Source: Candidatus Aenigmatarchaeota archaeon (GTDB taxonomy: Archaea; Aenigmatarchaeota; Aenigmatarchaeia; CG10238-14; SCSR01). Taken from it: a stretch of 64,000 bases of DNA. Below, piece after piece: positions 32,037 to 51,472 of this stretch (the stretch's first letter is position 1; the number at the start of each line of letters is the position of its first letter). Under the pieces are notes generated by a model that did no database searches, was not told the DNA's origin, and saw nothing but the letters and a program-made list of their open reading frames with translations. Location: positions 9,684-73,683 of the forward strand of contig JAVZGQ010000001.1 in NCBI GenBank assembly GCA_038998585.1, written 5' to 3'. The translations under genes were made by a program, and so were the position numbers.

Positions 32037-32553
32037 ACTAATACTAAATAATAATAAAGTAATTAAAGTTTGTTGTTAGTGCAAATAAGTTGATGTGAAT
32101 AATATAGGACAAGAAAAGAAAAAAAAGAAAGTTTGCCTATAAAAATTAGGCATATTAGACGTGGTTTTTAGGCAGAAGGAGTTGTTTGTTCCTCAGGTTT
32201 TGGCTCCTCTTTCTTTTTCTTTGCCATTCTCTCACCCCTTTATATTTTTTCATCCTTCTTGGACGAAGGAATCATCTTTATTAACAGCATAAAAAATAGG
32301 TAAGATAAAGATGACCGATAACTTTAAGTAGAAGTTCTACCATCTTCTTACTCTTAAGCTTTTCGGATAAGCTTAAATTTAAGGAATACAATAAAAAAGA
32401 CCTTATTTTTAGATTCCATTACAATATTAATTTGTTCTTTTAGATGGACATCAATAAGTTTCTTTATGACTTTTTAATTAAGGCCCATATTTTTAAGGAT
32501 ATGTCAGGAATTCATCTGAGAATCTGGCCATCAAAAATAAAAAATAGGAAACT

Positions 32554-32651
32554 TGCAGGGGGTGGGATTCGAACCCACGAAGGCACTAAGCCACTAGGTT
32601 TCCTCTTAACACCTAAGCCTAGCCCGATTGACCAGACTACGGGACCCCTGC
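32554..32651 (-). tRNA. tRNA-Leu(UAG) with ~12-nt intron in the anticodon loop
   Basis: Acceptor GCAGGGG/CCCCUGC-A, T-arm GUGGG-UUCGAAU-CCCAC, long variable arm; anticodon stem CUAGG/CCUAG encloses 19 nt (CUUAGG + 12-nt intron + A). Confidence 0.7.
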
Positions 32652-32711
32652 AATATTTGAGATAAGTTTTCTAGAAATTAAATCTTTGTTGTTTTTTATT
32701 TCAGGGACTAA

Positions 32712-37122: not shown

Positions 37123-37599
37123 TTAAAATTTTTTCATTTCAATAAAAATCCTTCTTGATTTTGGTAAAACATTTTCTATATAATTTTCTCTTAAAATTCC
37201 TGTGCCTACAAAATCTTTATCAAATTTTACAAGTACAAAGGAATTTATTTCGCAATTTATCAGTTTATGAGCCGAAAAATCAAGACCTTGTAAGAATTTT
37301 TTCAAATTTTCCTCATTGATAATAACAATATTTTTATTCGCCTTCTTTCCAACAAGTTGGACTCCTTCAACAGAAAGATGAATTTCCTCATTTTTCTTTA
37401 ACTTTCCAAAGTATAGGCCTAAAGCATTTATCCTTAGTTTAGAAGTATCCAATTCAAAAGCTTCATCTGATATAACCCAAATTTTATCTCCAGGAGTTTT
37501 GAACAATCTTTCTTTGAATTTAATTCTAGCCCCATAATTTTTTTCTAACAAATTCTCAAGATATACAATTTCTTCTAAGCCCATTTCTTCAACTTGCAT
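37123..37599 (-). CDS. hypothetical protein (158 aa), overlaps the Nsun gene by 25 nt in another frame; possibly an accessory or C-terminal domain partner
   Basis: Clean ORF directly downstream of the Nsun methyltransferase gene. Confidence 0.35.
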   Translation of the reverse strand: MQVEEMGLEEIVYLENLLEKNYGARIKFKERLFKTPGDKIWVISDEAFELDTSKLRINALGLYFGKLKKNEEIHLSVEGVQLVGKKANKNIVIINEENLKKFLQGLDFSAHKLINCEINSFVLVKFDKDFVGTGILRENYIENVLPKSRRIFIEMKKF

Positions 37600-38501
37600 A
37601 TAAAAAACCCCTCTGTGAAATTTTCAAATGGAAAGATTCGGATAGCATTTCTTATGCTTTCATCAAACTTTTTCCCGTTCCACTCCAAGATGCCTTCTCT
37701 ATATTTCAAATTCTTAATTTCAATCTTTTCAACACTTAGGCCAAGGTTTTTCACGCAGAAGTCAATTATTTCTTCATTTTCTTCTGGATCCAAAGAACAA
37801 GTTGAATAAACCAATGTTCCTTTTTCTTTCAAACATTTTGAGGCTGAGTATATAAGTTTTTTCTGCAAACTACTTAATTTTTCTACATTTGACTGTGACC
37901 AAAGTTTAAGTGAAGAGAACGTGCTTATAATTTTTCCACTTCCACTGCAAGGGGCGTCAACTAAAACTTTATCAAATTTTATTCCGTATTTCCAGAAATT
38001 TTCTCCTTTTTCATAAGTTAAAATACAATTTTTGACGCCCATTTTTTGCAAGTTAATCCGTAGGGCTTTTATTCTGTTCAGATTGTTATCATTAGCGACT
38101 ATTACTCCAGAATTTCTCATGATCATTGCGATTTGTGTTGTTTTTGAGCCAGGAGCTGCACATAAATCCAAGACTTTATCTTTCGGACTTGGGCTAAGGA
38201 TTAAGGGAGGAATCATTGAAGACGCTTCTTGAATATAATAGTATCCTAAAAAATATTCAAGAGTCTTTACAACATCTTTCTCATTTTCAACAAAAAACCC
38301 GTCCTTGTACCAAGGGATTTGTTTTAACTTCATCCCATTTTTTTCTAATCTTTTGACCAATTTTTCACTAGAAATTTTTATTGTGTTAACTCTTATCGAT
38401 TTTTTTGGTTTAAAAAATAAACAGGCTTCTAATTTTTCATATTCTTTACTTAAAAGTTTCTTATATTTTTCTTCAAAAGGTTTCGGTATTTTAATTTCCA
38501 T
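37575..38501 (-). CDS. RNA (cytosine-C5)-methyltransferase, NOL1/NOP2/Sun family
   Basis: LDLCAAPGSKTTQ (motif I), DAPCSGSG (motif IV with catalytic Cys), TCSL (motif VI Cys). Confidence 0.8.
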   Translation of the reverse strand: MEIKIPKPFEEKYKKLLSKEYEKLEACLFFKPKKSIRVNTIKISSEKLVKRLEKNGMKLKQIPWYKDGFFVENEKDVVKTLEYFLGYYYIQEASSMIPPLILSPSPKDKVLDLCAAPGSKTTQIAMIMRNSGVIVANDNNLNRIKALRINLQKMGVKNCILTYEKGENFWKYGIKFDKVLVDAPCSGSGKIISTFSSLKLWSQSNVEKLSSLQKKLIYSASKCLKEKGTLVYSTCSLDPEENEEIIDFCVKNLGLSVEKIEIKNLKYREGILEWNGKKFDESIRNAIRIFPFENFTEGFFICKLKKWA

Positions 38502-38555: not shown

Positions 38556-38858
38556 TTAATATGATTCAGATGATTTTATATTTTTCGAGTATTCAATTTT
38601 AATCCCATATAAATTTGCTAAGTTTCTAGCATTTTCATTCAGAGGCTTTTGTATTCTGAGTACACCTTCTTTATTTTCAACATCAGCGTCGAGCACTTTT
38701 ACATAAAGTTTCATCACAACTATCTCATCAGAAGAAGATTCGGTTTTTCTTATGATTTCTGAATAATCTTCGATTAGTCTAGTTTTTTCACGCGATTCAT
38801 CATATTCTATTGATGAAAACTCGTGTTCTATTCCAGATTTACCAATCTTTTTAACCAT
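38556..38858 (-). CDS. hypothetical protein (100 aa)
   Basis: ORF only. Confidence 0.3.
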   Translation of the reverse strand: MVKKIGKSGIEHEFSSIEYDESREKTRLIEDYSEIIRKTESSSDEIVVMKLYVKVLDADVENKEGVLRIQKPLNENARNLANLYGIKIEYSKNIKSSESY

Positions 38859-39306
38859 ATTATTATGATATTTGACTGACTATTTAAGCATTCTCATTCT
38901 CTGAGATACGAATCGATAGGATTTATTAATTCTTTAAAACACGCCATCGGTGGGACATTCAAAGAATTAGACTCCTACCCTTATTTTAAAATTACAGGTT
39001 GAAATTAAAAAACCTATTGGTTTCCAATATTTTTATTCTTTCAACATTTCTTAACAATTGTGAAGAAGAAATCCGAATGGCAAACAACTCCGATAAGAAG
39101 TTATAAGTATGCCTTCACTCCTGAAGAGATCAAAAAGATACTAGAAGTTGCAAAACCACACAGTTTCAGGTATACTGCTTATTGCTGACTCTCTTACTTA
39201 TTTCAAACATTTGAAAAATTATGATTCGATAAATAATGTTCTGTATAGTTTTAATAGTTTTAAAAGTTTTTTATAAATTTTATTGTTAAGATTTAATTAG
39301 AACTAT

Positions 39307-40017
39307 ATGCCTCAATTATTAAAAAAGTATGATGAAACATTAATAGAAACCATAAAAAGATACAATGAAATAGCTCCTCATTACAGTAGAGATGAGAGAG
39401 GAAAACTAGATAATGACCAAATTTTTCACTTAAAAAAGTTTATAAATTTTGTAGGATCACCCCCAAGAAAAATTTTAGATGCAGGTTGTGGCACAGGGAA
39501 AGACATTCTTTATCTTTCTTCATATGGATACGAACTTTTTGGAATAGATTTATCTTCTGGTATGTTAGAGGAGGCATTAAAAGTTGTGTATAACAAGAAT
39601 AACATACATTTACTAAGAGAAGATTTTAGGTATATGAGTTTTAGTAATTTTGTATTTGATGGTATATGGTGTAGTGCATCTCTGGTTCATTTGCCATATA
39701 AAGATAAACAAATAGCTCTTCAAGAATTTAATAGGGTTTTGAAAAAAGGGGAAATACTTTCCATAGGAATTCAAAATCTTTTATGTATAGATCGCTTAAT
39801 TCGTATTTTCAAATCTTATATAAGAAGGCCTATATATTCGTTAACCAAAACCTTCCTTTATAAAATGGAACTCGGATATGCCTACTATGATAAACGTCAT
39901 TGGTTCTTTCCGACAAAACCGTCTTTAATAAGGCTCGTAGAAGATGCGGGTTTTGAGATCATAGAAAGCAATAATGTTTTTTCAAAAAGGTTAAGAATCT
40001 ATGCTATAAAAAAATAA
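39307..40017 (+). CDS. class I SAM-dependent methyltransferase
   Basis: LDAGCGTGKD motif I; Methyltransf_11-like. Confidence 0.6.
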   Translation: MPQLLKKYDETLIETIKRYNEIAPHYSRDERGKLDNDQIFHLKKFINFVGSPPRKILDAGCGTGKDILYLSSYGYELFGIDLSSGMLEEALKVVYNKNNIHLLREDFRYMSFSNFVFDGIWCSASLVHLPYKDKQIALQEFNRVLKKGEILSIGIQNLLCIDRLIRIFKSYIRRPIYSLTKTFLYKMELGYAYYDKRHWFFPTKPSLIRLVEDAGFEIIESNNVFSKRLRIYAIKK

Positions 40018-40019
40018 AT

Positions 40020-40511
40020 ATGGATGTAGCAATTAAATTCGTATACTTATTAAAAAATATGGGAATTAATTTCGCTTCAGGTGTTCCTTGCGCTGTTCAA
40101 AAAGAAATAATTAAATATCTTTCAAATGATCCGGATATCATTCATATTCCAGCTACAAGAGAAGAAGAGGCAATAGGTATAACGGCAGGCGCATATTTGG
40201 GAGGAAAAAAACCTGTGTTTTATATGCAAAACTCAGGGCTTGGAAATTCTATAAATGCTATTACCTCATTATTAATAGCTTACAAAATTCCAGTCTTACT
40301 TTTAATTACATGGAGAGGATGTCCTGGAGAAGATGCACCACAACACTTACCTATGGGGGAAGCTACTCCAATGATTTTAAATAGTCTAAAAATACCCTTT
40401 CAAGTTATTACTAAAGAAAACATGGAAAAAGTAGTTTCCTTATCATTTGAATATATGAAAAAAAATTCATTACCTGTGGCTATTCTTTTTATAAGAGGCT
40501 TCTCTTTATGA
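40020..40511 (+). CDS. sulfopyruvate/phosphonopyruvate decarboxylase-like TPP enzyme, alpha (N-terminal pyrimidine-binding) subunit
   Basis: 163 aa ComD/Ppd-N-like; GVPCAV, TREEEAIGITAGAYLGGKKP. Confidence 0.6.
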   Translation: MDVAIKFVYLLKNMGINFASGVPCAVQKEIIKYLSNDPDIIHIPATREEEAIGITAGAYLGGKKPVFYMQNSGLGNSINAITSLLIAYKIPVLLLITWRGCPGEDAPQHLPMGEATPMILNSLKIPFQVITKENMEKVVSLSFEYMKKNSLPVAILFIRGFSL

Positions 40512-41074
40512 AAAGAGAAGATGCAGTCAAGTTAATATCTAAGGTATTGAAAGATAGGGAAAATGTTACAATAATTTCTTCTACAGGATTGATAAGTAGA
40601 GAATTATTTAGAATAAACGATAGTCCTCAAAATTTTTATATGACCGGATCTATGGGATTGGCATCTTCGATAGGATTGGGTTTAGCAATAGCACATACTA
40701 ATAGAAAAATCATTATCATCGAAGGAGACGGAAGTTTATTAATGAACATGGGTTCACTTGCAACAATTGGACACATTTCACCTAAAAATTTAATTCACAT
40801 TGTTTTAGATAACAATTCTTATGAGTCTAGTGGCGGTGAATGTACTGTTTCTAACACGGCTAACCTTGATAGTGTAGCAAAAATAGTTGGATATAAAAAT
40901 ACAGCAAAAGTTATTTGTGAAAAAGAATTAGAAAAAACTTTGATAGAATCACTTGATATAGATGGTCCTACATTTATACTTGTTAAAATCGAAAAAAGTG
41001 ATAAAAAAGATTTACCTAGAATACTAAATTTGGTGGAAATAAAAAATCGATTTATGAAATATTTATCTTCTTAG
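40508..41074 (+). CDS. sulfopyruvate/phosphonopyruvate decarboxylase-like TPP enzyme, beta (TPP-binding) subunit
   Basis: GSMGLASSIGLGLA...IIEGDGSLLMNMGSLATIG (the GDG...N TPP motif); start overlaps the alpha-subunit stop. Confidence 0.6.
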   Translation: MKREDAVKLISKVLKDRENVTIISSTGLISRELFRINDSPQNFYMTGSMGLASSIGLGLAIAHTNRKIIIIEGDGSLLMNMGSLATIGHISPKNLIHIVLDNNSYESSGGECTVSNTANLDSVAKIVGYKNTAKVICEKELEKTLIESLDIDGPTFILVKIEKSDKKDLPRILNLVEIKNRFMKYLSS

Positions 41075-41727
41075 TACTTTTTTTGTCCTAACAAGCAATA
41101 ATAGTTTTCTGAATCTACCCAAAAGTCTACAACATCAAAATTTTTGAACACATCTAGCAAAATCTTTTTGTTGAATCTATAATGCGGCATATTTTTTTCT
41201 GGACCACCTAAAATTACATAAGTTCGAGGCCCAATCCATTTGATTCCATAGAGTTTTTCCTTCGGTATATATTTTTTAGATAGATGTTTATGCACAGTTA
41301 TAAAAATGAAGCCTTTTGGTTTTAGAATTCTTTCCATTTCTCTTACACATCTCTTTATCCATCTAATTCTCCCATGATTAAGAGTTCTAATACTTATTAT
41401 TGCATCAAAAAAATCAGTTAGATAGGGCAATTTCTTGTATATGTCACCAATTTGTAAATTAGCCTTTAATTTCTCTTTTTTAAGCCATTCTTTTGCTATT
41501 TTTATACCATAATAAGCTATGTCAATCCCGTAAGCTTCAAAACCATTTTTGAGTAGATAGATTAAGTGTCTTCCAGAACCACAACCTAAATCTAGTACTC
41601 TTTTAACTTTATGTTTTTTAAAAAAATTTACAACCTTTGGTATATCTTCTTGTGGGGTTCTAAATATTTTCCCTTTTTCTTTAAAAATTTTATTCCAAGC
41701 ATTTTTATTTAATTTTTCCATTTTCAA
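41071..41727 (-). CDS. class I SAM-dependent methyltransferase
   Basis: VLDLGCGSGRH motif I. Confidence 0.6.
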   Translation of the reverse strand: MKMEKLNKNAWNKIFKEKGKIFRTPQEDIPKVVNFFKKHKVKRVLDLGCGSGRHLIYLLKNGFEAYGIDIAYYGIKIAKEWLKKEKLKANLQIGDIYKKLPYLTDFFDAIISIRTLNHGRIRWIKRCVREMERILKPKGFIFITVHKHLSKKYIPKEKLYGIKWIGPRTYVILGGPEKNMPHYRFNKKILLDVFKNFDVVDFWVDSENYYCLLGQKKY

Positions 41728-41740
41728 AATATTTTTTATC

Positions 41741-42193
41741 TCAAACTTTATAAACTTTACCTTTTTTGAAATAATATGTTTTTTTATCTGCAGTTAAAAT
41801 ACCAACAAGAATAATACCCTTTATATACGATCCTAAAAGAGCAGCATGATATCTCACACCCTGAGATTTATTGATTTTTATTTTTCGTATAGGGGGCACA
41901 AAATATTGTGATACATGTGTAAGATCTCCGGTTTCATTAATAAAATGAAACCCATCGTGGAGAGTGTTATTTTTTCTTGAAATCTTTAAAAGAAAATCTA
42001 TTGCTGAAGAGTTTTTTATGTTTATCTTATTTTTTGGTAATTTATACATTGGTCGCAAACTAAAATGTGGTATGTTTGAGAAATATCTCGAGTTATATAA
42101 TATTAGTCCCATCCCTGAAAAGTTGTTTATTTCCTTTGATTTTAATTTTATTTCCTTGAGTAATTTTATAAACAGATTAATTATAAATCTCAT
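41741..42193 (-). CDS. minimal stand-alone diadenylate cyclase (DAC/DisA_N) domain protein
   Basis: 150 aa; GMGLILY (GALIVI-like), LHDGFHFI (HDGAVII-like), GVRYHAAL (GTRHRAA-like). Confidence 0.5.
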   Translation of the reverse strand: MRFIINLFIKLLKEIKLKSKEINNFSGMGLILYNSRYFSNIPHFSLRPMYKLPKNKINIKNSSAIDFLLKISRKNNTLHDGFHFINETGDLTHVSQYFVPPIRKIKINKSQGVRYHAALLGSYIKGIILVGILTADKKTYYFKKGKVYKV

Positions 42194-42245
42194 GGTACTT
42201 TATGCTATAATAATGTTTTTGTATTTATTTTTATTATAACAAATT

Positions 42246-43322
42246 GTGTTAAAAAACATAGCACATGCTAAAGAACTTTCAAAAAAATTTAAAATCCCAG
42301 TAGAGGATATTTTACTTATTGCTCTTAACTGTTCAGGTATTAACACAAACCTACCTTTTAAAAGAATCAGATTTAGATTAAGGTTAAATAGTATTCCTTC
42401 AGAAGAATTTTATCTTGGTTTGCCTGTTCATTCAGATTCACCATTTTACTTGTCACAAGAAAAATCTCAATTATTTTTCAATAATAATTTAATTGGCTTT
42501 GTAAATGAAGTAGAAAATGATACTTGTGATTCGACTTATTTTAGAAGAAATAAAACCTACTTAACACTAAACTCAAATTCAAGAAGCAAATGTTATGGAT
42601 GTAAGTTTTGTGGGGTGATTAATCAAGACCCTAACGATGAATATAACTTAATAACTAAAAGCAGGCTCATTAATTTTCTTAAAAAATTTTTGAAGAGCAA
42701 CAACCTAAAAGATTTTTCTCATTTAGTAGGAGTTGGTATTTGTACAGGTTGTTTTGAAAATGAAGAAAAAACTCTAGAGCATATACTGCTAGTAAGGAAA
42801 GTTATGAGAAAATTTAAATTTGATAAGGAGTTAATCTACATTGGTTCTCAAATCACATCTAGAAGTAGTTTAGATATAATTAAAGAAAATGCAACTCCAT
42901 TTTCACTATCTCTTGCTTTAGAATGTTTTATGAGGCGTAAAGAGTTATTAAAATCAATTAAATCTAAAATAACTTTAAGGATGGGTAGAAAAATCCTTAA
43001 GGAATCTATAGAAAGGGGTTTTTATTCTACAATATTTTATATTATAGGCTTAGACTCACTAGAAGTAGTTATTAAAGAGTTTGAAAAATTTTTACCATAC
43101 ATGAATAGGTTCCCAGTGATAAATCTATTTCAACCTTACACTTCATACCAAAAAAATTTAAGGGATCCTGATGCTTGGAGCATTGAATATTATTTAGAAA
43201 TTCGGAAGAAATTAGAAGAATTATTTCTTCCCACATCTCTTAGACCAAGACCTTGGGAAAATTATAGACCTTTATGGTATCTAACATTTGGAAACGAACG
43301 TATAAACGACATAAGAATATAA
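42246..43322 (+). CDS. putative Fe-S enzyme (atypical CYGCKFC cysteine cluster; radical-SAM-like?)
   Basis: 358 aa; cluster C-x2-C-x2-C, not the canonical Cx3Cx2C; no other homology recognised. Confidence 0.35.
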   Translation: MLKNIAHAKELSKKFKIPVEDILLIALNCSGINTNLPFKRIRFRLRLNSIPSEEFYLGLPVHSDSPFYLSQEKSQLFFNNNLIGFVNEVENDTCDSTYFRRNKTYLTLNSNSRSKCYGCKFCGVINQDPNDEYNLITKSRLINFLKKFLKSNNLKDFSHLVGVGICTGCFENEEKTLEHILLVRKVMRKFKFDKELIYIGSQITSRSSLDIIKENATPFSLSLALECFMRRKELLKSIKSKITLRMGRKILKESIERGFYSTIFYIIGLDSLEVVIKEFEKFLPYMNRFPVINLFQPYTSYQKNLRDPDAWSIEYYLEIRKKLEELFLPTSLRPRPWENYRPLWYLTFGNERINDIRI

Positions 43323-43336
43323 CACCGAGTGATTAA

Positions 43337-43954
43337 ATGGGTAGGGACTTTTTACAAAAAACAATTAATGAATTATTTGAGTTATGGACTAGTAACTTGG
43401 ATACAAAAAGAAGTAGAATTAATATTTTTGAAAAAATAAGAGACATGCCTTTTGAAGTAATGCCCAATATATCTTTAGATTATGAAAAAAGTATAGAGTC
43501 AATTCTTGTTTATAAAAAGGGTTCTTGTACTTCAAAACACTTTCTTTTAGGAGAGTTATACAAAAGATTATACATTCCAATTAAATATGTGACGTATGTA
43601 TTTTACTGGTATGACTTAGAAGTTTCATATCCAATTAAATTAAAAAAACTTGCCTCAAAATTACCAGAACAGTATCACCTTGCATGTATAGCATATATTG
43701 AAGAGCGAAATGTGCTAATCGATGCTACATGGGACTTAGCTTTAAAGAAAGTAGGTTTTACTGTAAATGAGCAGTGGGATGGTATAAATGATACATTAAA
43801 TTCAATCAAACCTATAGATATGATTGTTCATGATACTCCAGAAGAAAGAATAGATTATCTTAAAGCAAAAATAAAAAATAATACAAACCCCTTGATTAGT
43901 AAATTTTATTGTGAGCTGAATAGATGGTTAAATGAAATTAGAAGTGGTAAGTAA
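43337..43954 (+). CDS. transglutaminase-like superfamily protein (putative cysteine protease fold)
   Basis: KKGSCTSKHFLLGELYKRLYIP resembles the G.C...A.L...LLR..GIP transglutaminase-core motif. Confidence 0.4.
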   Translation: MGRDFLQKTINELFELWTSNLDTKRSRINIFEKIRDMPFEVMPNISLDYEKSIESILVYKKGSCTSKHFLLGELYKRLYIPIKYVTYVFYWYDLEVSYPIKLKKLASKLPEQYHLACIAYIEERNVLIDATWDLALKKVGFTVNEQWDGINDTLNSIKPIDMIVHDTPEERIDYLKAKIKNNTNPLISKFYCELNRWLNEIRSGK

Positions 43955-44173
43955 AACTGGTTTTATGAACAATATTTGTAATTTGTATCCGTAGACTCTG
44001 TTTATTAAAATTTAAAGTATATTCTTTTACTCCCGGGAATATATTTAAAGTATGGGTTAGATTAAAATATTTTTGACTACGATTATGTAATTAGAAACCC
44101 CTTTAACAACTATATATTTTAGAGCTATAATCAAAAAAGTTTGAAATATTTGTCCTAAAAGTTTTCTAAAAAT

Positions 44174-44395
44174 TTAAAAAAAACATAAATATTTTTCTAT
44201 CCTTCTTTTTGAATAGTTGTTCGCTTCAAGCTTTCTCCAAAACTCTAACACACTTTCATAAGTTTTGACATCTATTTGTCTGAGAACCTCTAAGTTTGAT
44301 TTGATTCTGTGTTCTCGAGTATACAGGATCTTCCATGTTTTTAGCCTTATTCTACTTGCTAATAAATGCCAAAATGGGAATTGAAGAAATAAGCA
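44174..44395 (-). pseudogene. tyrosine-recombinase (integrase) N-terminal-domain fragment abutting tRNA-Asn
   Basis: ...NLEVLRQIDVKTYESVLEFWRKLEANNYSKRRIEKYLCFF resembles the SAM-like N-terminal domain of integrases; the called ORF's first 16 codons are tRNA sequence; there is no catalytic domain. Confidence 0.35.
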
Positions 44396-44500
44396 CGCCC
44401 TCGGTGGGATTTGAACCCACGACCTACCGGTTAACAGCCTCACCTTCCTTCTGGAATCGGGTGCTCTACCACTGAGCTTCCCCCGTATAACTACGAGGGC
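44396..44500 (-). tRNA. tRNA-Asn(GUU) with two short insertions (putative introns: ~14 nt after position 9, ~20 nt at 29/30)
   Basis: Acceptor GCCCUCG/CGAGGGC-G, D-arm GCUC-AGUGGUA-GAGC, loop CUGUUAA, 3' anticodon stem CCGGU, T-arm GUGGG-UUCAAAU-CCCAC; the 5' anticodon stem ACC..GG is split by CGAUUCCAGAAGGAAGGUGA; GUUAUACGGGGGAA lies between U8A9 and the D-stem; the leader carries a GCCCUCG-AGAGA-GCCCUCG direct repeat. Confidence 0.5.
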
Positions 44501-44569: not shown

Positions 44570-45856
44570 TCAGGGATACACTCTGTTTACTAGTCTTGGA
44601 AAAGCAATCGCATCCCTTATATGTTTGAGCTTACAAATCCACATCACAAATCTTTCAATTCCCAAACCAAACCCTGCATGTCGAACAGAGCCATATTTTC
44701 TCAAGTCCAAATACCATTTATAGGCAGAGACGTCGAGCTTCTCCTCTTCTATCCTTTTCATCAACTCTTCAAAACTTTCAATCCTTTCCCCAGAACCAAT
44801 TATTTCTCCATAGCCTTCTGGAGCCAGCATATCAACACTTAAAGTTACATTTGGGTTTTGTGGATCAGGTTTGTGATAGAATGCCTTTATTCCCTTTGGG
44901 AAATGTGTGACAAAAAAAGGAGTTTTAAACTCAAGTGCTAAAACTTTTTCTTCATCTGCCCCGAGATCATCCCCATATTTTACCTTCACCCCTTTTTCTT
45001 GCAGAATTTTTATCGCTTCTTCATATTTTATTCTTGGGAAAGGGGGCACCATCTTCAAAAAATCTTCAGGATTTCTTCCCAATTCTTTCAACTCAATTTC
45101 ACACTCTCTAGCAACTTTTTGTAAGATATGGACCACCAATTCTTCTTCAATCTTTACTAATTCTTCAAAGCCACAAAAAGGCATCTCAGCCTCAAGATGC
45201 CAGAATTCTGTTAAATGTCTTCTCGTCCTAGACTTCTCTGCCCTGAATGATGGAGCTATCGTGTAACATCTTCCAAAACCAAAAATCATTGCTTCTCCAT
45301 ACAATTGCCAAGACTGGGTCAAGTAGGCTTTAGAATCAAAGTACTTTAGTTCAAACAAGGTTGACCCACCTTCGCAAGCAGCCCCAACTATTATCGGCAC
45401 CTGGACTTCCAGGTAGCCATGCTCTTTAAACCATTCTCTTGCAGCTTCTAAGACTTTGGCCCTAATTTTTATTATTCTGTTCATCTTCTTACTTCTTATC
45501 CAAAAATGACGGTTGTCTAATAGAAATTCAGGACCATGATATTTTTTTCCAATCGGGAAATCTTCCATTGCTCTACTCAAAACTTTAACTTTTTCCACTA
45601 CTATTTCGTATCCATAGGGTGCTCTTTGATCTTTCTTTACTTTACCAAAAATTTCTATCGCAGATTCCAGGGGCAATTTTTCAATTTCATCAAAAGTTTT
45701 TTCATCTAACTGATCTTTCTTTAAAGTGCATTGGATGAAGCCTGTACCATCTCTTACTATCAAGAATAGAATACCGCCTGAGCTACGTTTGTTGTGAAGC
45801 CAACCTTTAATTTCAACTTCCCCTTCCAATTTCTTAAATATCTCAGCTATATCCAT
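44570..45856 (-). CDS. asnS: asparaginyl-tRNA synthetase
   Basis: 428 aa class IIb aaRS (OB domain, motifs 1-3, C-terminal AGFGLGIERFVMW...AFPR); assigned Asn rather than Asp because it is flanked by two tRNA-Asn genes and an asnA/asnC-like pair, and a distinct AspRS is at 7957. Confidence 0.65.
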   Translation of the reverse strand: MDIAEIFKKLEGEVEIKGWLHNKRSSGGILFLIVRDGTGFIQCTLKKDQLDEKTFDEIEKLPLESAIEIFGKVKKDQRAPYGYEIVVEKVKVLSRAMEDFPIGKKYHGPEFLLDNRHFWIRSKKMNRIIKIRAKVLEAAREWFKEHGYLEVQVPIIVGAACEGGSTLFELKYFDSKAYLTQSWQLYGEAMIFGFGRCYTIAPSFRAEKSRTRRHLTEFWHLEAEMPFCGFEELVKIEEELVVHILQKVARECEIELKELGRNPEDFLKMVPPFPRIKYEEAIKILQEKGVKVKYGDDLGADEEKVLALEFKTPFFVTHFPKGIKAFYHKPDPQNPNVTLSVDMLAPEGYGEIIGSGERIESFEELMKRIEEEKLDVSAYKWYLDLRKYGSVRHAGFGLGIERFVMWICKLKHIRDAIAFPRLVNRVYP

Positions 45857-45890
45857 ATAATCACATATTTTATTTTATAAAAATAAAATA

Positions 45891-45963
45891 CTGCGGCGGG
45901 GAGAATCGAACTCCCATCACCAGGTTAACAGCCTGGTATGCTAGCCTTTAGCACCACGCCGCT
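45891..45963 (-). tRNA. tRNA-Asn(GUU), intronless
   Basis: Clean cloverleaf: D-arm GUGC-UAAAGGCUA-GCAU, anticodon arm CCAGG-CUGUUAA-CCUGG, T-arm GGGAG-UUCGAUU-CUCCC, discriminator G; the 1:72 pair is an A-A mismatch. Confidence 0.75.
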
Positions 45964-46121
45964 ATAGCTCAAGCTAGGAATAAAAACAAATTCAAGGATT
46001 TTTTTATTTTGATAAAAACTGACCAAAAATTAGAACAAGTCTCGCTAAATATCGTTTTGGCAATCACCCTTCACTTTACCACCTTATAATTTTTCCCTCT
46101 TTTGTATTTAAATAATTAGCT

Positions 46122-47108
46122 CTATGGCGAAACGATTCCGGGAACTTTAGGGAAAGGAACAGCTTCCCAAATTTTTTCTATACCACAAACCCATCTTGTC
46201 AGTCTTTCCACACCAATTCCAAATCCAGAAGATGGTGGTATACCGGCCTTCAACATACCTAAATACCATTTGTACTTCTTGGGGTTTTCTCCAGTTTTTT
46301 TCATTCTTTCAACAACTTTTTGATATTCGTGTTCTCTTTCCCCTCCAGAAATAACTTCACCAAAGCCTTCTGGTAAAATCAAGTCAAAATCCCTCAATCT
46401 TTTCGTTTTTGGATCTTCAAGATAATAGAATCCTCTTGCCTTAAGAGGATAGTCGGTTATCCAGAATGGCTCAGAGTTTTGAGCTGAAAGAGCTTCTTCA
46501 GCCTCCCAAGGAATTTCTTCTTCGTCTCCCATCTTGAACCCAAGCTTCCTCACCGCCTCTACTGCTTGATGGTGAGTTAATCTTTTGAAAGGAGTTTTAG
46601 GAATTTTTATATTCCTGTTGAAAATTTTCAGCTCTTTGAAACATTTTTTCTTCAGATCTTTTAATACATAAACAATCATTTTTTCTCCTAAATACATAGA
46701 ATCTTCATAAGTGGCGTAAGCTTCTTCCAAATCAATTTGCCTGAATTCGGCCAAATGTCTTCCCGTCTGTGCAGACTTAATGGGTTCAATCCTTATGTTT
46801 GGCGAAAGAGAAAAAATTTTGTTAATAGAGGAAATTGCCATCTGCTTGTATAAGATCATACTGCTCATGAGTCTAAATTTCTGTCCATAAAAATTTATCA
46901 TCACTTGTTTCGCACCCCTTATTCCTGGGTCAGTAGCAGGACCAATTATTGGGGCAAGAATTTCTATGAACCCATGTTTTCTTAAAAATTCTCTTATGGC
47001 TGTTAAAATTTCATCTTGAATTTTAAGCATTGCTACCATTTTAGGATGTTTTAAAGTTATGTATCTATACTTGATTGAATCGAGTTTGTCAAGCTTCATA
47101 TTCATCAA
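46122..47108 (-). CDS. asnA: AsnRS-paralogous asparagine synthetase A-like protein (class II aaRS catalytic core without anticodon-binding domain)
   Basis: 328 aa; class II motifs (FRAE..., GFGIGVERL) but no N-terminal OB domain; resembles the archaeal AS-AR type. Confidence 0.5.
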   Translation of the reverse strand: MMNMKLDKLDSIKYRYITLKHPKMVAMLKIQDEILTAIREFLRKHGFIEILAPIIGPATDPGIRGAKQVMINFYGQKFRLMSSMILYKQMAISSINKIFSLSPNIRIEPIKSAQTGRHLAEFRQIDLEEAYATYEDSMYLGEKMIVYVLKDLKKKCFKELKIFNRNIKIPKTPFKRLTHHQAVEAVRKLGFKMGDEEEIPWEAEEALSAQNSEPFWITDYPLKARGFYYLEDPKTKRLRDFDLILPEGFGEVISGGEREHEYQKVVERMKKTGENPKKYKWYLGMLKAGIPPSSGFGIGVERLTRWVCGIEKIWEAVPFPKVPGIVSP

Positions 47109-47795: not shown

Positions 47796-47894
47796 GCCTA
47801 GGTGGCCGAAATTTTAGTCGGTATTCCGGTCAAGGCGCCAGTCTGCTAAGCTGGTGGTCGAAAGACCGTGTGGGTTCAAATCCCACCCTAGGCG
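47796..47894 (+). tRNA. tRNA-Ser(GCU) with ~17-nt insertion (intron) in the D-loop
   Basis: Acceptor GCCUAGG/CCUAGGC-G, anticodon arm CCAGU-CUGCUAA-GCUGG, long variable arm GGUCGAAAGACC, T-arm GUGGG-UUCAAAU-CCCAC; the D region GUGGCCGA[AAUUUUAGUCGGUAUUC]CGGUCAAGGCG is interrupted relative to canonical Ser D-arms. Confidence 0.6.
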
Positions 47895-48243
47895 TGCCCA
47901 TTTATTCAATTCTCATTTTGGAAAATAGCTATTGTTTTAAAAATCTTTATTTGAATCTGATAAAAGAAAAATTGATGAAAACCAAAAGCATTAGAAAGTA
48001 TTTTCTTGAAAAGATGATTTGTAGATTAGTTTTTAAAAAATTACTTTCTGGTTACCTTTCTTTCTTGTCAAAAAGAACATGTATAATAAGAGAAAAGGTA
48101 AAAAATTAGAAAATCAGTTCTTTCAATGTTAGATCAAATATTCCTATAAAATAGATTTGGTTTGCGAAGAATAAAATGTTCTTTAGTTTTTGAGGAATGG
48201 AAAGGCTTAAATAATTAATTGTTTCTATTCTTACATAGATAAA

Positions 48244-49125
48244 ATGGTGAATAAGAAAACAAAGCATGCAAATTCCAATAAGAAAATACTCTCTTATGAA
48301 GATGAGATCTTAATTCCAATTACCTTAGAAGAAACCCCGTATGAAGCTTATATTTTAATTAAAAAGAGAGAGGATTTAGAAAAACCCTCTTCTAGGCAAG
48401 TGTATGTCCCTGCTATAATCCCCAAATACTATATGGGGGGAAAAGACTATGTTGTAGATGAAATTAAAAAAATTAATAAGCAGTTAAAAATTAATAATCG
48501 GTCAGTTCTAGAAAATAAACCTTCACAAGATCCACCAAACGAGCCTGAGTACAAGAAAACCATTTTGGATATTATAAATAAAAAAGGCAAAGAGATAAAA
48601 AGAGAGATTCAAAACGAGGTTCAAAATGCTTTAAAAGATCTTGAGAAGAAAATGGATGAGAAAATAAATTTAATCTTGGAAGAAATTAAAAAACAAAAAG
48701 TTTTAGAAGAGTCACAAAATTCTCTTAAATCTCAAACAGGAACACAACAATCTCAAGAAGAATTTGAAAAAATTGCATCAGAATATGTGGTTAGTAAAAA
48801 AATTATAGAGAGTGACGAGGATTTTAAGGAGTATTTGGATAAAACTAAAAAAATAATTGAAGATGTAAAAAGTGGAAAAATAGATATTAAAAAACTTTTA
48901 GAATATATGAGGAATAAAATTCCATGCTACGATTTTTCTGAGGTACAACCTTATATGCCCATAATAATCGCAGCTGTAAAGAATTCTATAGAGCTTAAAG
49001 AAGAAGAATCTGATATATATCCTAGTTTTTGTAATATCTTATATAATCTCTCAACTTCAGATGCTGAAAATTTTAAGAATTGTTCAGAACTTTACAAAAT
49101 ATGTAGTGAGGGAGAAGAAAATTAA
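48244..49125 (+). CDS. hypothetical lysine/glutamate-rich protein (293 aa, coiled-coil)
   Basis: ORF only. Confidence 0.35.
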   Translation: MVNKKTKHANSNKKILSYEDEILIPITLEETPYEAYILIKKREDLEKPSSRQVYVPAIIPKYYMGGKDYVVDEIKKINKQLKINNRSVLENKPSQDPPNEPEYKKTILDIINKKGKEIKREIQNEVQNALKDLEKKMDEKINLILEEIKKQKVLEESQNSLKSQTGTQQSQEEFEKIASEYVVSKKIIESDEDFKEYLDKTKKIIEDVKSGKIDIKKLLEYMRNKIPCYDFSEVQPYMPIIIAAVKNSIELKEEESDIYPSFCNILYNLSTSDAENFKNCSELYKICSEGEEN

Positions 49126-49129
49126 AGAG

Positions 49130-50107
49130 TTATTTGAGTAGTTTTATTAAATCATTTATATTTTTTTTACCGCTTATAATCTCATTTATTATTCTATCCA
49201 CTTCTCCTTGAAGCACAAAACCTAAATTTGAATACGCTTGATACTGTGGCGATCCTTTGCTACCTTTTATGCTCAGCAATGCATTATTTAGTACTGCCCC
49301 CTTGTAACCTTTTATTTTATTAATATAAGTGAGAAGTGCTGCCTTTGCATTTTTTTCAATCTCTAATCCTGTTTTTATAGCATCTTGCAAGTTTTTTGTA
49401 TATTCCTCAAGCTTGAACCAATTTTCTACCATATATTGCAGAGCTTTAACGAATAGGACTGCCCCAAATACTCCAATCAACCCCCACACACCATATCCAT
49501 ACATATCTAGTAAGAAAAACCCAAATAATTGTCTAGAAGCATACATAGAAATTATAAAAGAGAGAATGAGTGTGACTGATCTTCCCACATTGCCTAGCAA
49601 ATCTTCAACTCCCACTTTGCTCATTATCCCATACATAAAAGTAAAGACAAATGCGAATGGTAAAATTAGATAAAATACTGCAAAGACAGTCCAACCCAAG
49701 TCTCCTACTTCTATTGGAAAGTAACCATTTGTCGTACAAGACCAAATAGCAATTGCATCAGTTATTTTTGTTGGGGTTTCTTTTGTCCCGAATAGACTCG
49801 TACATTTTTCCAACATAATTTGTGATGAAGGGTATTGTTGAATGAAAGTTTTGAGCAAGTTTATTTCCAACAACAAAACAAAAATGAAGAGAAAAAAGTA
49901 GCCAACATATCTTAATATCTTGCCCCATATGAAAGGTAAGAAAGTACTAATCATAAAAAGAAGTGCTGTAGAAACAATTGCCACAAAAATCATTGGATGA
50001 GCGAAGAAATCAAGTTGATTCCCAAAAAGCTTTAAAATAGCAAATTGGGCAATAAAATAAAACAATATAATTCCTAAGCCAACACCAAATACTTTAAAAT
50101 TTGGCAT
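49130..50107 (-). CDS. hypothetical polytopic membrane protein (325 aa)
   Basis: About 8 predicted TM helices. Confidence 0.4.
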   Translation of the reverse strand: MPNFKVFGVGLGIILFYFIAQFAILKLFGNQLDFFAHPMIFVAIVSTALLFMISTFLPFIWGKILRYVGYFFLFIFVLLLEINLLKTFIQQYPSSQIMLEKCTSLFGTKETPTKITDAIAIWSCTTNGYFPIEVGDLGWTVFAVFYLILPFAFVFTFMYGIMSKVGVEDLLGNVGRSVTLILSFIISMYASRQLFGFFLLDMYGYGVWGLIGVFGAVLFVKALQYMVENWFKLEEYTKNLQDAIKTGLEIEKNAKAALLTYINKIKGYKGAVLNNALLSIKGSKGSPQYQAYSNLGFVLQGEVDRIINEIISGKKNINDLIKLLK

Positions 50108-50482
50108 AATAACTATTTAGAAACATAAGCTTAAAAATGTTAAGAAAGAATTCTTGATGCGCTATTTCTACTATTTAGATTCTGTAAGAAAAATTAGGTC
50201 AGTCTTAGATTTTAAATTAAAGAATGTTTACATACTATGAATAGTCTTTTTCTATTGTATAATATGAATTATTTTGGCTTAACATCAAACATCAAAAGAT
50301 AGTTTTCCTGCTTTTGAATAATTTTGCTGTAGTCAACTTCCGAGGTCAATCAATAAAGTTAATGAAAATTAGATTTAAGTAGCTGTGGCTAAAGGTTTTT
50401 AAATTTAAAAAGAAATAATATTAGTGAGAATTGAAGAAAAGCACTTTACCACACTGGGAGTGTTTATACTTAAAGTGTTTGA

Positions 50483-51096: not shown

Positions 51097-51183
51097 AGCC
51101 CCAGGCGGGATTTGCACCCGCGACCTCATGCTTACCATGCTTACGCAGATCTTATGCGCTCTAGCTAGCTGAGCTACTGGGGC
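51097..51183 (-). tRNA. tRNA-Thr(GGU) with 13-nt intron at position 29/30; unusual T-loop (G at position 55)
   Basis: Acceptor GCCCCAG/CUGGGGC-U, D-arm GCUC-AGCUAGCUA-GAGC, 5' anticodon stem CAU[AAGAUCUGCGUAA]GC pairing with GCAUG, loop AUGGUAA, T-arm GCGGG-UGCAAAU-CCCGC; tandem 9-nt GUAAGCAUG repeat. Confidence 0.5.
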
Positions 51184-51472
51184 ATAATCTTATAATATGA
51201 TTTAAGTTAGAAAAATCAATTTCTTTTTTCATTTATCAAGAGACTTTTACCATAGATATCTATAAAAAGAATTTGATATGAAATGTTATTTTTATAGTTA
51301 TCTCCAATTAAATGAAATAAGGCTGAGCTTAGTGTATAAAGAATATAAGTTGGTAAGAGCATAATTTTGGAAATAATTTCACTGTTGATAATAATAAGAG
51401 CAAAAAAAGTTTTTAAGAACAATGGGATAAGTTAAGAAAATTCTTTTATTCTGAAAAATCAAATTAATTTTT

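Follow-up and report, generated by a model that had tools for sequence, protein, structure and literature searches.

A probable integrative-element remnant behind a tRNA-Asn gene of an Aenigmatarchaeota archaeon, and its conserved seven-gene cargo

Introduction

The window, that is the whole 64-kb stretch of DNA analysed here, belongs to Candidatus Aenigmatarchaeota archaeon, a hot-spring DPANN archaeon. Behind its tRNA-Asn gene lie 5.4 kb of DNA that an earlier note, made from the sequence alone, had described as a degenerate integrated element bounded by an att-like repeat. How did this DNA reach the site, and what may its genes do together? The reading favored here, with a probability of roughly 0.78, is that the foreign DNA derives from a site-specific integrative element, of which it is a fixed remnant, and carries one conserved seven-gene cluster, for which a small-molecule pathway is the best fit. 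The element itself is of an ordinary kind, and the interest lies in the cargo cluster.

The tRNA-Asn gene and the att repeat

44396..44500, minus strand: tRNA-Asn(GTT) with two non-canonical introns (Rfam tRNA, 32.3 bits; spliced form called by ARAGORN)
44391..44409, no strand assigned: proximal att core, the final 14 nt of the tRNA and the 5 nt that follow; the minus strand reads TCCCACCGAGGGCGTGCTT
38937..38955, no strand assigned: distal att remnant, an orphan tRNA-Asn 3' end, 17/19 nt identical; the minus strand reads TCCCACCGATGGCGTGTTT
44369..44390, minus strand: 22-nt motif ATTTCTTCAATTCCCATTTTGG between the att core and the integrase start, recurring after tRNA-Ser at 47900-47921

The tRNA-Asn gene is the integration target, and has been left intact. 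It is interrupted by introns of 14 nt in the D arm (44477-44490) and 19 nt in the anticodon stem (44439-44457). Because both are non-canonical, the unspliced gene is missed by ARAGORN and reaches only 32 bits with Rfam; once they are removed, ARAGORN returns a canonical 72-nt tRNA-Asn at 44396-44500 on the minus strand. The analysis by Rfam, and by ARAGORN on the spliced sequence, confirmed that the right copy of the repeat is the 3' end of this gene. The 15-nt copies are ACGCCATCGGTGGGA at 38941-38955 and ACGCCCTCGGTGGGA at 44395-44409; the repeat exists as formerly described, one base away from the positions then given. With up to 2 mismatches allowed, the window contains no other match, where the chance expectation is 0.02. 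The repeat can be lengthened to 19 nt at the cost of 2 mismatches (38937-38955 and 44391-44409), and no further into the T arm. The 22-nt motif occurs exactly twice in the window, with 0.00 copies expected by chance.

The GC content is 28.7% in the island and 33.5% in the window as a whole, and a lower value is found in just 1.7% of windows of the same size; by tetranucleotide deviation the island ranks among the top 2%. The left flank (36.6-38.9 kb, 29.0% GC) is as AT-rich as the island, so that the GC step occurs on the right side only.

The same site in related genomes

An empty tRNA-Asn site, which the earlier note had proposed to look for, was found in genome L168, where AsnRS is followed by tRNA-Asn with the same two introns, 230 bp, and Nop2-PUA. 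L168 is a different species, about 72% identical at the nucleotide level in the AsnRS region, and its downstream order differs, with no FtsZ there. L166 and L167 each have an orphan copy of the core, TCTCACCGAGGGCGTGTTT, upstream of Nop2; in L166 it sits 150 bp from Nop2, and other DNA and cargo are found beyond it. Nop2 is 85% identical in L166, where the Nop2-PUA-FtsZ order is the same, and it is a host gene passed on by vertical descent. Small cassettes lacking an integrase follow tRNA-Asn in about ten closer relatives, and no repeat is found, hence the site may also vary by other routes.

Integrase remnants

A profile HMM of DPANN tyrosine integrases of ~400 aa, along with sub-HMMs, was run on the six-frame translation of the window.

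44141..44336, minus strand: integrase pseudogene, N-terminal remnant, residues 1 to ~68 of ~400 aa (tblastn, family HMM, N-terminal sub-HMM)
39117..39173, plus strand: possible internal integrase remnant (top window match of the 'mid' and 'boxII' sub-HMMs, E 2.3 and 5.6; weak)

The right remnant is the sole significant match of the family HMM in the six-frame window (22 bits, E 1.3e-6), scores 35.9 bits with the N-terminal sub-HMM (E 1.2e-10), and is also the best window match of the L166 integrase in tblastn (E 7e-4). The pseudogene starts with an ATG at 44336-44334, 59 nt past the tRNA, is shifted by 1 nt after codon 3, and meets an in-frame TAA at 44176-44174, with no catalytic domain downstream. 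The ORF had been described as an integrase N-terminal domain continuing out of the tRNA: the identity stands, the continuation does not, as the sequence has its own ATG and the frame through the tRNA is incidental. The intact L166 integrase, of the same family, starts 77 nt after a tRNA-Leu, with att outside the gene, and the layout of integrase and tRNA at the window locus is the same.

In the left fragment, TPEEIKKILEVAK (~residues 135-147) is joined to KPHSFRY (box II HxxR, ~residues 258-264), which implies an internal deletion of ~111 aa. Its orientation is opposite to that of the N-terminal remnant. Taken alone, the fragment is not significant, and the inversion model is for this reason unproven; yet two independent sub-profiles both have their best match in the window here, in one frame and in colinear order, which weakly suggests a piece of the integrase catalytic domain, as had been proposed.

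In the scenario envisaged, an element encoding a ~400-aa DPANN-type tyrosine integrase would have recombined into the 3' end of the chromosomal tRNA-Asn via a ~19-bp core, keeping the tRNA intact and producing a second core copy at the far end, where it would abut the host genes Nop2-PUA-FtsZ. The integrase gene would at first have begun ~60 nt past the tRNA, pointing away from it. It would later have been wrecked, leaving ~68 N-terminal codons with a frameshift and a stop and, probably inverted at the opposite end, a short stretch of the catalytic domain with an internal deletion. A single inversion of the element interior, plus deletions, would account for remnants facing each other. It is the simplest account, and the former description of the element as rearranged or composite was right. 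Self-excision would no longer be possible; neither an excision product or circular form of the element nor, in the window, an intact integrase was seen.

Alternatively, two successive elements may have integrated at tRNA-Asn, each leaving one integrase remnant, and have been fused by later deletions. The opposite orientation of the remnants is compatible with this view, as is the different cargo at the same scar in L166, which implies that the site was used or turned over more than once. The hypothesis is nevertheless improbable, since the remnants are complementary and non-overlapping (residues 1 to ~68; ~135-147 plus 258-264), as expected from one gene cut once, a single internal att copy is present, and the cargo in between is one coherent cluster. 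Much less credit can be given to the idea that no mobile element was involved, the space downstream of tRNA-Asn being a hot spot where genes gather through recombination, homologous or illegitimate, and the 19-nt repeat a coincidence. Relatives do carry each a different small cassette after tRNA-Asn (wHTH ORFs, GNAT, KaiC-like protein), with no integrase or repeat, but the chance expectation of the repeat in the window is at most 0.02, the same orphan core recurs in L166 and L167, and the N-terminal remnant (E 1e-10) sits exactly at the usual gene position of the family.

An SSV-type 'suicidal' element, whose integration would have divided the integrase gene into an int(N) at one end and an int(C) at the other, could explain the open frame running from the tRNA into integrase-like sequence and the presence of remnants at both ends, but is already contradicted and was rejected: homology begins at integrase residue 5, right after the ATG 59 nt past the tRNA, and the tRNA-proximal piece is therefore an N terminus with its own start, not int(C); att lies outside the gene in the intact L166 relative; the remnants are oppositely oriented; and box II is HxxR, whereas that of SSV1-type integrases is KxxR (PMC8371274). 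As to the SSV-type versus pNOB8-type distinction raised in the earlier note, the integrase is of neither type, with att outside the gene and HxxR in box II.

The inverted single-element remnant remains the preferred reading. Archaeal integrative elements that target tRNA genes with tyrosine integrases have been reviewed (PMC8371274). Similarly to these, the island is located at the 3' end of an intact tRNA, has a distal direct repeat and an integrase by att, deviates in composition, and corresponds to an empty site in relatives. It differs in having an integrase cut to ~68 codons and one further, doubtful piece, a probably inverted interior, a metabolic-looking cargo in place of viral or plasmid genes, and a DPANN archaeon as host. 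On the whole, an integrated element at tRNA-Asn is supported by the empty site in L168, the orphan core in L166, the two-copy repeat and the integrase remnant beside the tRNA.

The cargo genes

39307..40017, plus strand: MT1, class I SAM-dependent methyltransferase (Pfam Methyltransf_25, E 4e-19)
40020..40511, plus strand: TPPa, TPP-dependent decarboxylase alpha subunit, ComD / phosphonopyruvate decarboxylase N-terminal-half type (TIGR03845, Ppyr-DeCO2ase)
40508..41074, plus strand: TPPb, TPP-dependent decarboxylase beta subunit, ComE / Ppd C-terminal-half type (TIGR03297, TIGR03846)
41071..41727, minus strand: MT2, class I SAM-dependent methyltransferase (Pfam; L082 identity)
41741..42193, minus strand: mDAC, PanS-type minimal diadenylate-cyclase-fold protein, 150 aa (PDB 37jy, profile search)
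42246..43322, plus strand: FeS, divergent radical-SAM-fold Fe-S enzyme (alignment, AlphaFold2, Foldseek)
43337..43954, plus strand: TGL, transglutaminase / arylamine-N-acetyltransferase-like protein, Cys-His-Asp (C64, H114, D129) (AlphaFold2, Foldseek)

MT1 is 46-55% identical to the methyltransferase of the L082 and L170 clusters. MT2 is 50% identical to residues 157-367 of L082 2607-3713, and is the counterpart of the C-terminal half of an mDAC-methyltransferase fusion protein found in bacterial homologues. The DAC domain gene and the separate methyltransferase previously noticed are both present, and match this one fused protein.

Like ComDE and Ppd, the decarboxylase is a TPP enzyme made of two subunits. 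Alpha exceeds the cutoff of TIGR03845 (169 bits, cutoff 148) and scores 143 bits with Ppyr-DeCO2ase; the best models for beta are those of Ppd and ComE (TIGR03297, 199 bits; TIGR03846, 181 bits), each below its cutoff. In contrast to the known systems, no PEP mutase or ComA/B/C genes accompany the decarboxylase in the five cluster contexts seen.

The 'atypical Fe-S protein' of the earlier note keeps its Fe-S character, and can now be set as a divergent enzyme of predicted radical-SAM fold. The AlphaFold2 model (pLDDT 93) matches LipA, HydE, NosL and BioB in Foldseek (E 3e-5), and the alignment of homologues, of which there are >300, reveals invariant C116-x2-C119-x2-C122 and C169. Features in common with the superfamily are the partial TIM-barrel and a Cys triad situated where the cluster-binding loop lies; the triad is however CX2CX2C rather than CX3CX2C, an additional N-terminal domain of ~100 aa is present, TM-scores are only ~0.45, and no Pfam match, PF04055 included, was obtained. 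The transglutaminase/NAT-fold protein (309 cluster representatives) similarly has no Pfam match; its AlphaFold2 model (pLDDT 97) matches 3isr, TglA 9crn and NATs in Foldseek (E 4e-4).

The mDAC aligns over its full length to PDB 37jy, the 'Panoptoo PanS synthase' (E 9e-18; profile search E 8e-23), while Pfam DAC gives just E 9e-5, under cutoff. It carries HDGFH, a motif of the PanS clade, at residues 79-83, together with the conserved G-x-R (G112-x-R114), F and S positions. Judged by sequence, it clearly falls in the PanS clade: it is an archaeal protein related to the recently described mini nucleotide cyclase PanS.

A conserved cluster and its plausible function

The cargo had been viewed as assorted accessory genes. 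Instead, counterparts of all seven proteins, with identities of 41-76%, occur in the same cluster in four further contexts (L081-83, L084, L170 and L171-173), and the genes are one co-inherited seven-gene cluster, made up of a radical-SAM-fold enzyme, a split TPP decarboxylase, mDAC, two methyltransferases and a transglutaminase/NAT-fold protein. The cluster recurs in DPANN and CPR genomes. As a point against the element reading, its surroundings elsewhere are ordinary chromosomal DNA with no integrases.

The Panoptoo/PanDA anti-phage system consists of the minimal DAC PanS and the 2TM-beta effector PanE (bioRxiv 10.64898/2026.08.10.743927; PMC13640721), and genes of the PanS clade are overrepresented in defence islands and mobile elements and low in GC (PMC13640721). 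The cargo could hence be a variant anti-phage system, in which mDAC makes a decoy or regulatory cyclic dinucleotide and the other proteins are effector or signal-modifying modules. The PanS-clade membership, the location on a decayed, mobile, low-GC element and a prophage PanS-TM pair (L174) 36% identical to mDAC go in this direction. The defence hypothesis is all the same unlikely. The island has no PanE, no other 2TM-beta or beta-PNP effector, and no membrane or beta-barrel partner; PADLOC yields generic methyltransferase matches only; and the cluster was not found on viral contigs. The constant partners (TPP decarboxylase, radical-SAM enzyme, methyltransferases, often a HAD phosphatase) are biosynthetic in make-up. 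The cluster also differs from the Panoptoo system in that mDAC adjoins or is fused to a SAM methyltransferase across cluster homologues, and is always found with the radical-SAM-fold enzyme and the split TPP decarboxylase. It occurs in an archaeon and in CPR bacteria, while most of the published clade comes from Pseudomonadota.

The cluster is best read as encoding a small-molecule pathway, whose product would probably be nucleotide-derived or of the sulfo-/phosphono-type. The mDAC would supply or activate a nucleotide moiety, to be tailored by the methyltransferases, the radical-SAM enzyme and the decarboxylase.

The closest cluster, that of L170 (identity 75.6% for MT2 and 70.4% for TPPa), begins 160 bp after a tRNA. 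The order of its blocks is FeS-TGL, then MT1-TPPa-TPPb-(MT2), the contig ending inside MT2; in the window, MT1-TPPa-TPPb-(MT2-mDAC) comes before FeS-TGL.

The island at tRNA-Asn and its empty site

The 5.4-kb island is a decayed, now immobile integrative element of the known tRNA-targeting kind. It starts immediately past the 3' end of a tRNA-Asn gene which is intact, as the spliced form folds canonically. As a decayed island next to a tRNA, the element is of textbook type; its value lies mainly in recording a clean, bounded acquisition of genes by an ultra-small DPANN genome, whose relatives have the same site either empty or alternatively filled. The features involved are:

37575-38501, Nop2-type methyltransferase, host
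38556-38858, 100-aa ORF between the scar and Nop2
38937-38955, orphan att repeat, distal border of the island
44396-44500 (-), two-intron tRNA-Asn(GTT), target
44570-45856, asparaginyl-tRNA synthetase (AsnRS), host
45890-45964, intron-less tRNA-Asn(GTT)

ARAGORN calls a tRNA-Asn at the last of these sites only, and Rfam reports a weak tRNA at 44403-44480. Without its two inserts, of 14 nt (44477-44490) and of 19 nt (44439-44457), the target gene yields a canonical 72-nt tRNA-Asn(GTT), and the right repeat therefore corresponds to the final 14 nt of a genuine tRNA-Asn and the 5 nt beyond. The 15-mer pair described in the earlier note is present, though shifted by one base (38941-38955 and 44395-44409). 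With up to 2 mismatches allowed, the window contains the 15-mer exactly twice, chance expectation being 0.02, and the repeat reaches 19 nt with 2 mismatches, the sole such pair in the window. Neither an extension of the repeat into the T arm, nor a longer tRNA-derived stretch, nor a third att copy was found at the borders. An exact-match search of viral contigs with the att 16-mer returned 12 GC-rich chance hits and no integrase.

The window derives from the MAG of a Candidatus Aenigmatarchaeota (DPANN) archaeon, and all genomes used for comparison belong to other species. AsnRS is 86-88% identical to its homologues in hot-spring Aenigmatarchaeota MAGs, and a metagenome scan for conspecific contigs found none exceeding 87% AsnRS identity. 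In four comparators (L002, L003, L005 and L006) and seven metagenome contigs, FtsZ lies 0.4-1.6 kb after AsnRS/tRNA-Asn. An insert of 7.3 kb (37.1-44.4 kb) including the Nop2-PUA genes, first estimated from L002, L003 and L005, was rejected because two related genomes, L166 and L168, show Nop2-PUA as host backbone adjoining tRNA-Asn. In L168, AsnRS is followed by a tRNA-Asn with the same two introns and, after 230 bp, by Nop2-PUA; window positions 45226-44394 align with L168 7-854, and 38481-37124 with L168 1103-2460. L166 (GCA_038999725.1) has the order Nop2-PUA-FtsZ as in the window, and an orphan TCTCACCGAGGGCGTGTTT about 150 bp upstream of Nop2, preceded by unrelated ORFs. In L107, a more distant relative, AsnRS, tRNA-Asn, a KaiC-like gene and a 157-aa ORF precede Nop2. 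Taken together, the three contexts imply that tRNA-Asn followed by Nop2-PUA is the host backbone, and the borders originally drawn for the island are essentially right. L168 provides the empty tRNA-Asn site sought among related genomes, and L166 is an alternatively filled site carrying the same scar. The missing Nop2-PUA beside tRNA-Asn in L001-L006 is a separate rearrangement. The Nop2-type methyltransferase is vertically inherited, and its sister-genome homologues are 79-85% identical. The 100-aa ORF next to the scar has no counterpart in L166 or L168.

The GC content of the island is 28.7%, among the lowest 1.7% of equal-sized windows, and its tetranucleotide deviation ranks within the top 2%. 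The notion that it is more AT-rich than its surroundings holds against the window as a whole (33.5% GC), but not against the Nop2 flank, which is equally AT-rich. Elsewhere in the window, tetranucleotide usage deviates strongly at one place only, 53-55.5 kb, where a 933-aa ORF is located (52764-55565).

A few peculiarities of the flanks deserve mention. The RsmF/Nop2-type RNA m5C methyltransferase (37123-38501) is split into a 308-aa catalytic ORF and an overlapping 158-aa C-terminal PUA-like ORF. The split is kept in L166, L168 and in the comparator L169, where an IS240-type DDE transposase lies just upstream. On the opposite side, AsnRS is flanked by the two tRNA-Asn(GTT) genes, intron-less and two-intron, and is followed by a 328-aa class-II aminoacyl-tRNA synthetase catalytic-core paralogue devoid of anticodon-binding domain (46122-47108), which may be an asparagine synthetase similar to AsnA. 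Introns of tRNA-Asn differ among relatives, being both present in the window and L168, reduced to the anticodon-stem intron in L003, and missing in L001 and L005. In L002, tRNA-Asn carries a D-arm insert and a duplicated 5' fragment (GCCCTCGTAGCTCAG...), and a ~500-bp insertion encoding a ~155-aa ORF is found upstream of it.

Integrase remnants

Pfam and PHROG scans of the integrase-like fragments just inside the two repeats returned nothing, even at E up to 10. An intact relative is found in L166, where a 401-aa tyrosine integrase with a C-terminal zinc ribbon (L166 6692-8064) begins 77 nt after tRNA-Leu(TAG). With this protein as query, tblastn places the best match of the whole window at 44326-44141 (-), covering residues 5-66 (E 7e-4). 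A family HMM built from 113 DPANN homologues of this integrase gave exactly one significant hit in the six-frame window, the right fragment (22 bits, E 1.3e-6), which the N-terminal sub-model recognized at 35.9 bits (E 1.2e-10). The presence of an integrase N-terminal-like sequence just inside the right repeat is thereby confirmed. The remnant has its own ATG (44336-44334), 59 nt beyond the tRNA, and its first residues are M-E-D (M-E-V-D in L166). The start is followed by a 1-nt frameshift, an in-frame TAA is found at 44176-44174, and homology stops near residue 68. The integrase beside att is present as a pseudogene only, with no catalytic domain. Since the remnant starts at its own ATG, the ORF running through the tRNA is incidental, and the earlier proposal that the integrase continues out of the tRNA has to be abandoned. 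Derivation of the right fragment from the small wHTH ORF which follows the tRNA in L001 and L002 was discarded, the two having no similarity.

The left fragment had been taken for the start of a tyrosine-recombinase catalytic domain. The sub-model covering residues 108-150 has indeed its top window hit at 39117-39155 (TPEEIKKILEVAK), and that covering residues 250-290 at 39153-39173 (KPHSFRY, an HxxR box II), but the E values, 2.3 and 5.6, are individually not significant. They adjoin each other, share one frame and are colinear. Judging from these matches, the fragment is probably an internally deleted integrase scrap. The right and left remnants cover complementary parts of one protein, and face each other. 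Such an arrangement would be accounted for by a single inversion of the island interior, if this broke the gene between codons ~68 and 135 and had its second breakpoint close to the distal att. A search for inverted repeats marking the breakpoints revealed AT-rich noise only.

In SSV-type elements the att core resides within the integrase ORF, and the gene is thus cut upon integration into int(N) and int(C) moieties of like orientation (PMC8371274). An element of this suicidal type is rejected here, because att, here as in L166, is external to the integrase gene; moreover, the start codon is located past the tRNA, and the remnants are oppositely oriented. Box II reads KxxR in SSV1-type and YxxR in pNOB8-type integrases (PMC8371274). 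The alternative between the two types, as posed in the earlier note, finds neither motif, as box II is HxxR both in L166 (PHSFRH) and in the window scrap (PHSFRY). The window homologue of the L166 tRNA-Leu (32553-32652) has no adjoining integrase. In the comparator L086, an integrase pseudogene (HMM positions 13-115) follows tRNA-Ser.

The cargo is a portable gene cluster

The cargo is more valuable than the element, being a seven-gene cluster common to DPANN archaea and CPR bacteria. In the window it comprises two methyltransferases (MT1, MT2), a split TPP decarboxylase (TPPa, TPPb), a minimal DAC protein (mDAC), an Fe-S protein (FeS; NCBI QW423_00340, on a 140-kb contig) and a transglutaminase-like protein (TGL). 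Homologues of FeS, over 300 in number, occur in DPANN, CPR bacteria (Nealsonbacteria), Clostridium and Butyricimonas. The family is absent from viral contigs. Homologous clusters are organized as follows:

L170 (closest, 67% identity): tRNA, 160 bp, FeS, TGL, MT1, TPPa, TPPb; MT2 on the other strand
L081-83: FeS, TPP_N, TPP_C, 368-aa protein, HAD, two methyltransferases; 223-aa protein on the other strand
L084 (genome with bacterial-type RecO and HicA): same core as L081-83
L171-172 (archaeon with Alba and TFIIB): separate 165-aa mDAC, divergent from FeS, TPP_N, TPP_C, methyltransferase

BLAST comparisons identified counterparts of all seven island genes in these clusters, and the cargo is thus one co-inherited cluster. 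The 368-aa protein of L081-83 is a fusion corresponding to the window mDAC and MT2 genes together. The window cluster is without the HAD gene and the third methyltransferase, and the order of the FeS-TGL and MT1-TPPa-TPPb-MT2 blocks is opposite to that of L170. A tRNA adjoins the cluster in three of the five contexts; that of L170 (Rfam, 62 bits) contains an intron, and its anticodon is read as TGT (Thr). The cluster is clearly modular, and moves between DPANN and CPR genomes. A literature search for this gene combination found none.

TPPa passes the curated sulfopyruvate decarboxylase alpha model (TIGR03845, 169 bits, cutoff 148), whereas TPPb scores below cutoff with both the ComE (181 bits, cutoff 221.5) and the Ppd (199 bits, cutoff 312.5) models. 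Pathway partners of sulfopyruvate and phosphonopyruvate decarboxylases are missing: neither ComA/B/C nor PEP mutase was found among the Pfam families of neighbours in the five cluster contexts. FeS has no Pfam hit in its window version; PF04055 is precomputed for a minority of the homologues, with a weak hit in one of them (P0002). The alignment shows invariant residues C116-x2-C119-x2-C122 and C169. The predicted structure (pLDDT 93) retrieves LipA, LIAS, HydE, NosL and BioB by Foldseek (E 3e-5 to 1e-3, TM ~0.40-0.45), and features an additional N-terminal domain beside a radical-SAM-like barrel. According to the model, FeS shares the partial TIM-barrel fold of the radical SAM superfamily, from which it departs in having CX2CX2C rather than CX3CX2C, and in the lack of PF04055. 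TGL (205 aa) belongs to a family of 309 cluster representatives, with D129 invariant, and conservation of C64 and H114 reaching 90% or more. Its model (pLDDT 97) retrieves 3isr, TglA and arylamine N-acetyltransferases (E 4e-4), and the protein is predicted to share fold and Cys-His-Asp triad with transglutaminase-like cysteine proteases and NATs; Pfam reaches only E 0.21, in one homologue.

A 41%-identical CX2CX2C radical-SAM-fold homologue resides in Clostridium beijerinckii (JAQCRM010000017) in a natural-product-like neighbourhood, including PHP, carbamoyltransferase, two canonical radical-SAM genes and UDP-glycosyltransferase. Both TPP decarboxylase and mDAC are absent from this neighbourhood.

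A PanS-type minimal DAC with different partners

PanS proteins were described in August 2026 as bacterial anti-phage decoy-signal synthases (bioRxiv 10.64898/2026.08.10.743927; PMC13640721). Hallmarks of this minimal-DAC clade are HDGFH, G-x-R and conserved F and S positions, and more than 90% of its members are in operon with a predicted 2TM-beta effector, PanE (PMC13640721; bioRxiv 10.64898/2026.08.10.743927). The window mDAC (150 aa) carries HDGFH at residues 79-83, G112-x-R114 and the F and S positions of the clade, and matches the Panoptoo PanS synthase (PDB 37jy) over residues 8-146 at E 9e-18, CdaA-type DACs scoring ~0.4. Pfam DAC gave E 9e-5 only, and a profile search E 8e-23. The protein conforms therefore to PanS, DAC-only, ~150 aa long, with HDGFH and conserved D, G, G and R residues.

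Such likeness would favour a Panoptoo-like defence role, in which constitutive synthesis of 3'3'-cUA or c-di-AMP represses the effector. The operonic partner in Panoptoo/PanDA is PanE, a 2TM-beta protein, rarely replaced by beta-PNP, whereas mDAC here neighbours a methyltransferase and a radical-SAM enzyme. A PanE-type or membrane partner is absent both in the island and in the homologous clusters (L081-84, L170-172); 19-aa Kyte-Doolittle windows above 1.6 are found among island proteins only in TPPa and mDAC, known soluble folds. PADLOC returned generic methyltransferase matches only. From gene content, we favour over defence a putative tailoring pathway around a nucleotide-derived, or sulfo-/phosphono-type, intermediate, because the constant partners in the cluster are biosynthetic enzymes.

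More specifically, the cluster may be an undescribed mDAC-based system of DPANN and CPR organisms, its product being a new modified nucleotide signal, or an antiviral/antimicrobial nucleotide. The proposal is tentative, and we would give it about three chances in ten. Its core would consist of a PanS-type mDAC fused to, or beside, a SAM methyltransferase, together with the radical-SAM-fold enzyme bearing CX2CX2C and the split TPP decarboxylase; HAD, extra methyltransferases and the transglutaminase/NAT-fold protein would be optional parts. The DAC-fold enzyme would make a nucleotide or dinucleotide, to be methylated, radical-modified and conjugated to a decarboxylated 2-oxo-acid unit. If true, the PanS clade would extend beyond decoy signalling and beyond bacteria. 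In any case, the window shows a PanS-type minimal DAC in an archaeon, among entirely different partners, a testable lead to the role of minimal DACs outside Panoptoo/PanDA, and to that of the CX2CX2C radical-SAM family.

A 162-aa mDAC, 36% identical to that of the window, was found in a proteobacterial IMG/VR contig (L174 2196-3356), where a TM-helix protein and then a beta-rich ORF come after it, and a 458-aa integrase is adjacent. This mDAC and the TM protein look like a classical PanS/PanE pair on a prophage.

Other tRNA-linked features

A tRNA-Ser(GCT)-like gene at 47796-47895 (+) was missed by ARAGORN and Rfam, probably because of an intron. A 22-nt motif, ATTT[A/C]TTCAATTC[C/T]CATTTTGG, is found 5 nt past its 3' end (to 47921), and follows tRNA-Asn as well; just these 2 copies occur in the window, 0.00 being expected by chance. 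A 2.6-kb stretch separates tRNA-Ser from a DOT1-like methyltransferase gene (50483), and includes two ORFs, 48244-49125 and 49130-50107, the latter encoding a membrane protein. In L003 the homologue of the 50483 gene is within ~90 bp of tRNA-Ser, and L001-L003 have no match to either ORF. The region 47896-50480 is probably a second tRNA-linked insertion, for which no distal repeat was found. Variants of the 22-nt motif lie directly after two other tRNAs in L019, an 8-kb Aenigmatarchaeota-like contig (332-353 and 7741-7762), and the assembly breaks right past them at both contig ends. The motif may be either an element end or integrase arm site, or else a tRNA trailer specific to the lineage. 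Finally, another tRNA-like gene, whose anticodon region contains an insert, is located at ~51098-51186 (-); passed over by ARAGORN, it is recognized by its T arm and acceptor stem only.
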